Assembly: GCF_003334785.1 (NCBI RefSeq)
Contig: NZ_QOWV01000048.1
Direction: 5' to 3' (one strand)
Origin: Escherichia coli
GTDB lineage: Bacteria; Pseudomonadota; Gammaproteobacteria; Enterobacterales; Enterobacteriaceae
Length of the DNA: 4,151 bases
In this document: piece after piece, positions 135 through 285 of the stretch
Numbering within the stretch: position 1 is the stretch's first letter
Layout of the letters: each line of letters starts with the position of its first letter
Translations under genes and position numbers: made by a program
Notes under the pieces: generated by a model
The model's input: only the letters and a program-made list of their open reading frames with translations
The model's database searches: none
Told to the model about the DNA's origin: nothing

Positions 135-164
135 TTGAAGTGGCAGCCTTACTGAGGCTACACT
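135..164 (+). promoter_or_regulatory. RNAI promoter (-35 TTGAAG 135-140, 18-bp spacer, -10 TACACT 159-164)
   Basis: The string gttcTTGAAGtgg...ggcTACACTagaagg is almost identical to the pMB1/pBR322 RNAI promoter as I recall it; the predicted start is the A at about 171. Confidence 0.6.
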
Positions 165-170
165 AGAAGG

Positions 171-275
171 ACAGATTTGGTGACATGTCTCGCACAAGAC
201 TGTTACCACGGTTCAGAAGTTCCCCAACTTACTGAACCTTCGAAAAACCACCTCCCCAGGTGGTTTTTTCGTTTT
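171..275 (+). ncRNA. RNAI antisense copy-number control RNA (ColE1 family)
   Basis: Position and flanks match pMB1 RNAI (starts ACAG, ends in a hairpin plus U-run). Three stem-loops are visible, e.g. GGTTCAGaAGTT...AACTtaCTGAACC and CCACCtccccaGGTGG. The loop sequences differ from pBR322. Confidence 0.75.
243..270 (+). terminator. RNAI intrinsic terminator (CCACC/GGTGG stem followed by T6)
   Basis: aaaaaCCACCtccccaGGTGGtttttt; same position and architecture as the pBR322 RNAI terminator. Its complement forms the 5' end of RNAII. Confidence 0.7.
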
Positions 276-285
276 CTAGAGTAGA

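Follow-up and report, generated by a model that had tools for sequence, protein, structure and literature searches.

The RNAI antisense RNA gene of a 4-kb ColE1-type Escherichia coli plasmid: loop sequences and predicted compatibility

Does the antisense RNA of a small Escherichia coli plasmid define a compatibility type of its own, or does it belong to a type that is already known? This question is raised by positions 135-278 of a 4,151-nucleotide (nt) stretch of E. coli DNA (assembly GCF_003334785.1, contig NZ_QOWV01000048.1; hereafter the window), where a first-pass annotation had described a ColE1-family RNAI gene with stem-loops unlike those of pMB1 and with conserved promoter, terminator and origin, and had concluded that the replicon probably has its own compatibility specificity while still using Rop. 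The window is a complete circular E. coli plasmid of 4075 base pairs (bp) read slightly over once, positions 1-76 being identical to 4076-4151 (the 4075-bp period was verified). We find that 135-278 very probably contains the RNAI gene with its promoter, RNAI being the antisense RNA that represses a ColE1-type, DNA polymerase I (Pol I)-dependent theta replicon. As such, the element is already known: both the RNAI allele and the whole plasmid are in public databases, Rfam has a curated family for this RNA, and as a textbook control element for copy number and incompatibility it has little discovery value. The parts of the element are as follows.

135-164, + strand: RNAI promoter, with the -35 element TTGAAG at 135-140, a 17-nt spacer and the -10 element CTACACT at 158-164, assigned by homology
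171-278, + strand: RNAI antisense RNA, 108 nt (Rfam, fold, terminator scan, covariation)
171-177, + strand: single-stranded 5' tail of RNAI, 7 nt (minimum free energy (MFE) fold)
178-208, + strand: RNAI stem-loop 1 (SL1), loop CGCACA at 191-196
210-238, + strand: RNAI stem-loop 2 (SL2), loop CCCC at 222-225
241-271, + strand: RNAI stem-loop 3 (SL3) and terminator, loop CCCC at 254-257
272-278, + strand: U-rich 3' end of RNAI

The RNAI feature is real and far beyond chance, and nothing counts against its identity as RNAI. A match to the Rfam family RNAI (RF00106) at 172-272 of the + strand extends over the full model (1-102) and scores 85.5 bits (E = 1.6e-15; gathering score 47). Folding of the 108-nt RNA, a check suggested by the first-pass annotation, which had quoted exactly positions 171-238 of the window, yielded three stem-loops following the 5' tail, with a free energy of -42.8 kcal/mol (z = -7.29), a stability reached by none of 200 shuffled sequences, and the three stem-loops are present in both the MFE and the centroid structure. 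The hairpin at 242-269 with its T-run is the sole terminator-like site that a terminator scan found in 100-400. A scan of the same region for generic sigma-70 promoters called none, the RNAI promoter scoring 8/12 with a threshold of 9. As both the RNAI and the RNAII promoter fall just under this threshold, they were assigned by homology; in the alignment, the RNAI promoter hexamers are unchanged across ColE1 (NC_001371.1), pMB1 (the pMB1-origin plasmid pCAPs), a natural p15A-type plasmid (NZ_CP030184.1) and CloDF13 (NC_002119.1), which served as references throughout. The vector origin sequences of pBR322 and p15A (pACYC184) matched these records at 100%. The transcription start was likewise placed at A171 by alignment with ColE1 and pMB1.

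Covariation supports the same fold. When the structure of the window RNA was projected on an alignment of nine natural RNAI types, 88% of the cells in the stems were paired, compared with 33-48% when the 3' partners were slid; the window sequence is itself among those aligned, which somewhat inflates the paired fraction and affects the counts of double changes less. Compensatory double changes were found at 11 pairs, a number that 0 of 500 shuffles reached, and all three helices covary. With RNAalifold, a 12-sequence MAFFT alignment yielded no more than parts of SL1 and SL3, as SL2 was misaligned between the ColE1 group and the other sequences. These data bear on the question of whether the divergence from pMB1 might simply be neutral drift of a non-essential region, which would make it uninformative on specificity. 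The stems do tolerate many substitutions, but this is all that can be said for drift and it is nothing specific, whereas the substitutions in the stems are compensatory. In addition, the Klebsiella pneumoniae 3.8-kb plasmid LR890673.1 differs from the window in SL2 and SL3 by seven changes at 219-228 and four at 253-257, without differences in the rest of both stems. Differences confined to the apexes are the pattern of a specificity determinant, and we consider neutral drift very improbable.

The target of RNAI, the primer precursor RNAII, is encoded on the opposite strand and runs across the point at which the circle was opened, up to the origin of replication (oriV).

286-314, - strand: RNAII promoter, with the -35 element TTGAGA at 314-309, a 17-nt spacer and the -10 element TAGTCT at 291-286 (alignment with ColE1, pMB1, p15A and CloDF13)
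1-278, - strand: 5' ~278 nt of RNAII, which begins with a ~108-nt exact complement of RNAI carrying the three target loops
3844-4075, - strand: 3' part of RNAII as far as oriV, the site of the RNA-to-DNA transition, with the motif CCGTTTTTCCATAGGCTCC at 3844-3862 (+ strand)

By alignment, the RNAII promoter is located just past the RNAI terminator, giving the antisense arrangement of the family, and the start of RNAII was inferred near 277-279, with a predicted length of ~500 nt. The -35 block GATCTCAAGAAGATC is invariant across ColE1, pMB1, p15A and CloDF13, and the 17-nt spacer is mostly unlike that of the references; together with the variant -10 element, the changed spacer could alter primer supply and copy number. 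Positions 1-76 are the block that is conserved across all ColE1-family replicons compared, the conserved oriV/RNase H transition sequence is present, and no Rep gene was found among the open reading frames (ORFs) of the window.

Following the mechanism of the family, RNAII would be transcribed leftwards from 314-286 over ~500 nt to oriV near 3845-3862, where RNase H would cut the RNA-DNA hybrid and thereby provide the primer for DNA synthesis by Pol I. RNAI would be made constitutively from the opposite strand and would kiss the nascent RNAII via its CGCACA, CCCC and CCCC loops. In the next step, pairing would spread from the 5' tail of RNAI to form a duplex that would block primer formation and the persistent hybrid at oriV, while Rop (2702-2893) would stabilise the early kissing complex. 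By analogy, RNAI would inhibit primer formation in trans and replication would depend on the Pol I and RNase H of the host; since RNAI would act in trans, it would set incompatibility as well as copy number.

How the window compares with the classical replicons depends on the segment considered. The identities are given below, NTP16 standing in for RSF1030 and pSF301-2 (NC_019249.1) being a small Shigella flexneri plasmid of ~3.2 kb, and are followed by the RNAI loop sequences in the order SL1, SL2, SL3.

3690-3989, oriV end: p15A 90-99%; pMB1 69-92%
1-60, conserved block: ColE1, pMB1, NTP16, p15A-type and pSF301-2 98-100%; CloDF13 90%
61-134, downstream of the conserved block: pMB1/ColE1 86-88%
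135-170, RNAI promoter block: pMB1 86%
171-203, 5' tail and SL1: CloDF13 79%; pMB1 76%
204-238, SL2 segment: CloDF13 89%; pMB1 54%
239-273, SL3/terminator segment: CloDF13 97%; p15A 83%; pMB1 74%
274-345, RNAII promoter region: all references 71-74%, except NTP16 (44%)
RNAI loops, window: CGCACA, CCCC, CCCC
RNAI loops, CloDF13: CUGCGAA, CCCC, CCCC
RNAI loops, p15A: CCUCCA, UUGGUAG-type, CUGCAA
RNAI loops, pMB1 and ColE1: CUGCUGA-type, UUGGUAG, UGGUAGC-type
RNAI loops, NTP16: CCUCCA, UUGGUAG, UUGGUAG

The divergence of the RNAI stem-loops from pMB1 that the first-pass annotation had described is thus borne out in all three segments (76%, 54% and 74%), and all three loops are different. Its statement that the flanking elements are conserved as in pMB1 fared less well. 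It applies to the RNAI promoter, with identical hexamers and 86% identity over 135-170, but not to the RNAII promoter region with its 71-74% and its TAGTCT element; the terminator, described as nearly identical to that of pBR322, is much closer to CloDF13 than to pMB1 (97% compared with 74% over 239-273), and the origin block at 3830-3909 agrees with the p15A type at 99% of positions and with pMB1 at only 84%.

Several points weigh against our reading of the replicon and of its specificity. The 5' and 3' ends of RNAI and the start of RNAII were placed by homology alone, and the RNAII -10 element TAGTCT is one base off the TAATCT of ColE1, pMB1, p15A and CloDF13. The statements on compatibility made below are predictions from sequence. 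They draw in part on an apex-pairing proxy, in which the energies of the duplexes between the three hairpin apexes and their complementary apexes are added up; this is a crude and uncalibrated measure. For RSF1030 they use a provisional vector sequence, the nearest records being NTP16 and pOSAK1 (97.9%), of which NTP16 was taken as proxy.

A specificity distinct from pMB1/ColE1-, p15A- and RSF1030-type replicons is nevertheless well supported by the predicted loops. In the apex-pairing proxy, the window RNAI scored -57.0 kcal/mol with its own RNAII, but only -11.8 with p15A, -7.7 with NTP16 and -4.4 kcal/mol with pMB1/ColE1, which is at most 21% of the cognate value. We therefore predict that the plasmid is compatible with pBR322/pUC, pACYC and pRSF-type vectors, and that it is incompatible with plasmids of the pHS-2 class and with all other carriers of its RNAI allele. 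For practical purposes, these three groups of vectors should be able to share a cell with the plasmid and with its relatives of the pHS-2 class. Partial cross-reaction with CloDF13-type replicons may occur, so that interference with CloDF13-origin (pCDF) vectors may be encountered: with CloDF13 RNAII, the proxy retained -42.4 kcal/mol (74% of cognate). This lies between the reference cases of the same proxy, the incompatible pair pMB1/ColE1 at 89-100% and compatible pairs involving RSF1030 at 57-62%.

Two rival readings of the specificity were weighed. According to the first, which is that of the first-pass annotation, the replicon has a private compatibility specificity unlike every defined ColE1-family type and still uses Rop. 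The full combination CGCACA/CCCC/CCCC indeed matches none of ColE1, pMB1, p15A, CloDF13 and the RSF1030-type proxy, and a rop gene is present. Moreover, RSF1030 forms a compatibility group apart from p15A and ColE1 among the four classical groups of the family (PMC9458437), and the provisional RSF1030 sequence has two loop sequences in common with p15A and two with ColE1; two shared loops need therefore not cause incompatibility. On the other hand, the allele is by no means unique to this plasmid: at least 216 PLSDB records contain the 108-nt RNAI with an identity of 99% or more, among them many ~3.1-kb S. flexneri plasmids (100%) such as pSF301-2, and so do 55 records of the 5,426 complete E. 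coli genomes. In addition, loops 2 and 3, the apical stems and the 5' tail are those of CloDF13, and the pairing retained with CloDF13 RNAII is above that of the compatible RSF1030 pairs, although below that of pMB1/ColE1. The claim of an own specificity thus holds with respect to the loops of pMB1/ColE1, p15A and the RSF1030-type proxy and does not extend to an allele found in this plasmid only, and the prospect, raised at the time, that the loops might prove identical to those of a defined type came true in part: CloDF13 has the same loops 2 and 3, the same apical stems and the same initial 11 nt of the 5' tail, but not the same loop 1 and SL1. In our judgement, a private specificity falls just short of an even chance.

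According to the second reading, the window RNAI cross-reacts with CloDF13-type RNAII and with other RNAII molecules matching CCCC/CCCC apexes (pSMS35_8, pSUH-5), either within one incompatibility group or as asymmetric interference. In its favour, CloDF13 shares with the window two of the three loops as well as the 5' tail that nucleates pairing, and the two RNAIs differ at only 14 of ~105 positions. SL1, however, differs in both loop and stem (79% over 171-203), its pairing in the crude proxy drops from -19.4 with the cognate to -4.8 with CloDF13, and single-base loop changes can already alter incompatibility in the classical ColE1 literature. Natural co-residence contributes little to this question. 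Among the strains listed, none combines the window-type RNAI with an RNAI of the exact CloDF13 type, but as only ~0.25 genomes would be expected by chance (55 x 25 / 5426), this absence carries no weight. Three natural co-resident pairs were inspected, namely pSF301-2, with the window-type RNAI, next to the ColE1-like pSF301-3 in S. flexneri 301 (judged by record names), a CloDF13-type plasmid next to a 2.6-kb plasmid in E. coli EC28, and pSMS35_8 next to pSMS35_3. None of them shares two loops, which counts in favour of cross-reaction; but all three loops differ in each pair, and the pairs are therefore silent on whether a difference in loop 1 is sufficient, and three pairs give no statistical power. 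The neighbouring accessions inspected for strains carrying the plasmid were all large non-ColE1 plasmids. We regard cross-reaction with CloDF13-type RNAII as possible but rather doubtful.

Close relatives of the window RNAI show how the three stem-loops are recombined in nature. The Klebsiella plasmid LR890673.1 has the window SL1 loop CGCACA, with a 2-nt deletion (window 185-186), together with the SL2 and SL3 apexes UGCC and CUGCAA. In the 2.6-kb plasmid of E. coli EC28 (NZ_CP194975.1), SL1 is identical to that of the window and the SL2 and SL3 apexes are GCCA and GCCA. Conversely, pSMS35_8, representative of 226 E. coli records whose RNAI is 90-95% identical to that of CloDF13, combines the SL1 of ColE1 with the SL2 and SL3 of CloDF13, and in pSUH-5 CCCC/CCCC is found together with a fourth loop in SL1, CUUGUAC. 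The CCCC/CCCC apex pair hence occurs with at least four SL1s (window, CloDF13, pSMS35_8, pSUH-5), and the window SL1 with at least three sets of SL2/SL3 apexes. GGGG loops, which correspond to CCCC in RNAI, have also been described in SL1 and SL2 of the RNAII of ColA and pCS36-4CPA (PMC5935869). To judge from these combinations, the stem-loop apexes are combinatorially assorted among natural ColE1-like plasmids. One might tentatively speculate that natural ColE1-family RNAIs are combinatorial sets of three semi-independent specificity modules, and that in the present plasmid the whole control module moved together with the wzz cargo, although we would not yet expect this idea to hold. If true, mapping which apex combinations reside together could reveal a natural 'incompatibility code' and could tell whether one altered loop suffices for escape. 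The reassorted apexes are only a mildly interesting lead, yet they provide a natural panel to study how many loops must differ for ColE1-type compatibility, a number left open in the literature on engineered origins (PMC9458437).

The plasmid as a whole has been seen repeatedly. Two deposited E. coli plasmids, NZ_LT985290.1 and NZ_CP147063.1 (pJKHS016_4), match the full length of the window at 100%, and ~15 further E. coli plasmids of ~4.07 kb are 99.3-99.7% identical. Annotated genes are those for the lipopolysaccharide (LPS) O-antigen length regulator wzz(fepE), a helix-turn-helix (HTH) protein, Rop and a small hypothetical protein. Positions 1-1638, comprising the control region and wzz, are 97.8-100% identical to pSF301-2, with 100% over 1-414, and 1587-4075, comprising the HTH gene, rop and the oriV end, are 97-98% identical to LR890673.1. 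The identity to pSF301-2 is ~74% up to position 4073 and 100% from position 1. One junction is thus located near 4046-4075/1-76, within or next to the conserved ori block, which extends across the circular origin of the window, and the other near 1587-1638. From this pattern, the plasmid is evidently a recombinant of a pHS-2-like module (wzz and control region) and a Klebsiella-type backbone.

Within the cargo, wzz(fepE) at 373-1506 (- strand) is broken by a nonsense mutation with a stop codon at 595-597. Position 597 is A in the window and G in pJKHS016_4, so that on the - strand a CGA codon (Arg) has become TGA, leaving a 303-amino-acid (aa) ORF (model positions 3-298 of 368) and an in-frame 68-aa remnant (306-368). 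Apart from this position, NZ_CP147063.1 deviates from the window only by 1 nt in an A-run near 1974, and its gene is intact (372 aa). A 3179-bp record with an identical RNAI, NZ_CP152077.1, is labelled Pseudomonas aeruginosa (mouse inner ear); as ColE1-type replicons have a narrow host range, this host is surprising, and the sample may have been contaminated or the record mislabelled.

On the backbone, the rop gene is intact, and the statement of the first-pass annotation that Rop is still used is supported at the level of gene content.

2702-2893, - strand: rop/rom, 63 aa (Pfam PF01815 Rop, 4.5e-29, residues 1-56)

The protein is identical to ColE1 Rop at 36 of 56 residues (64%) and is annotated as 'Rop family protein' in NZ_CP147063.1; an NCBIfam search returned no family for it, whereas Pfam did identify it. 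The helix-1 residues K3, N10, F14, Q18 and K25, which are important in Rop, are conserved in the alignment with the ColE1 protein. As Rop reads the geometry of the kissing complex and not the loop sequence, it should also work with CCCC/GGGG kisses. The rop stop codon TGA (2704-2702, - strand) overlaps by one base with the ATG (2702-2700) of a downstream 133-aa HTH ORF in the sequence TGATG, suggesting that the two genes form a translationally coupled operon. The HTH protein scored 56 bits with the NCBIfam 'plasmid replication DNA-binding protein' rep_pAB02_ORF2, below the cutoff of 85. On the rop-coding strand, ~85-170 bp upstream of the rop start, five to six direct repeats containing TGTAGT (e.g. 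TTTTGTAGTTTATCTGTAGTC and TTTTGTAGTCTTCCTGTAGTC) are present at 2978-3062; they are iteron-like and may be a candidate operator for the HTH protein.

Two further non-RNAI repeat regions were noted. The non-coding region 1900-2101 is dense in GAGTC/GACTC inverted repeats, including the perfect 17-nt pair TGACTTGACTCTAGAGT and ACTCTAGAGTCAAGTCA at 1947-1963 and 1999-2015, and may be a site resembling an origin of transfer (oriT) or a recombination site. MOB-suite types the identical deposited record as 'mobilizable' despite no relaxase gene being present. At 3255-3345, short palindromes are built on GTAATAC...GTATTAC (e.g. ACATGTAATAC and GTATTACATGT at 3317-3342); a weak Rfam match to mir-9436 in this region (21.5 bits, gathering score 80) was rejected as spurious.

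Compared with the known systems, the RNAI of the window has the same promoter hexamers and the same three-stem-loop plan as pMB1 and ColE1, whose RNAIs differ from each other by 1 nt and whose conserved block matches the window at 100% over 1-60. However, 34 of ~108 RNAI positions and all three loops are different, which separates the window from the pMB1/ColE1 type, and the RNAII of pMB1/ColE1 is presumably ~50 nt longer. The p15A type shares RNAI architecture and length and is, of the classical types, the one most similar to the window over the whole replicon (83%), but all three loops differ from the window in p15A as well as in NTP16 and the provisional RSF1030 sequence, so that the plasmid has neither incompatibility type. 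The closest classical RNAI overall is that of CloDF13 (769-876 of its record), with 81% identity over 135-340. Identical in both are the first 11 nt of the 5' tail, ACAGAUUUGGU, the SL2 apex, GUUCCCCAAC, and the upper stem and loop of SL3, ACCACCUCCCCAGGUGGU; the SL1 loop is CUGCGAA in place of CGCACA, the SL1 stem differs, the lower SL2 stem has compensatory changes and, at the oriV end, the CloDF13 replicon is only 54-77% identical, and the window does not share all three loops of the CloDF13 type. Taken together, pMB1 is the wrong reference for a replicon with a p15A-like oriV end and CloDF13-like SL2 and SL3. The allele itself is that of pSF301-2, which we take to be a member of the pHS-2 class, small (~3-kb) S. 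flexneri plasmids encoding the very-long-chain O-antigen regulator Wzz(pHS-2). The two plasmids differ in the oriV-proximal region (3533-4073, only ~74%) and do not share the rop/HTH backbone, but the identity is 100% over 1-414, which covers the RNAI promoter, RNAI, the RNAII promoter and the 5' half of RNAII, and continues at 97.8% to position 1638, including wzz.

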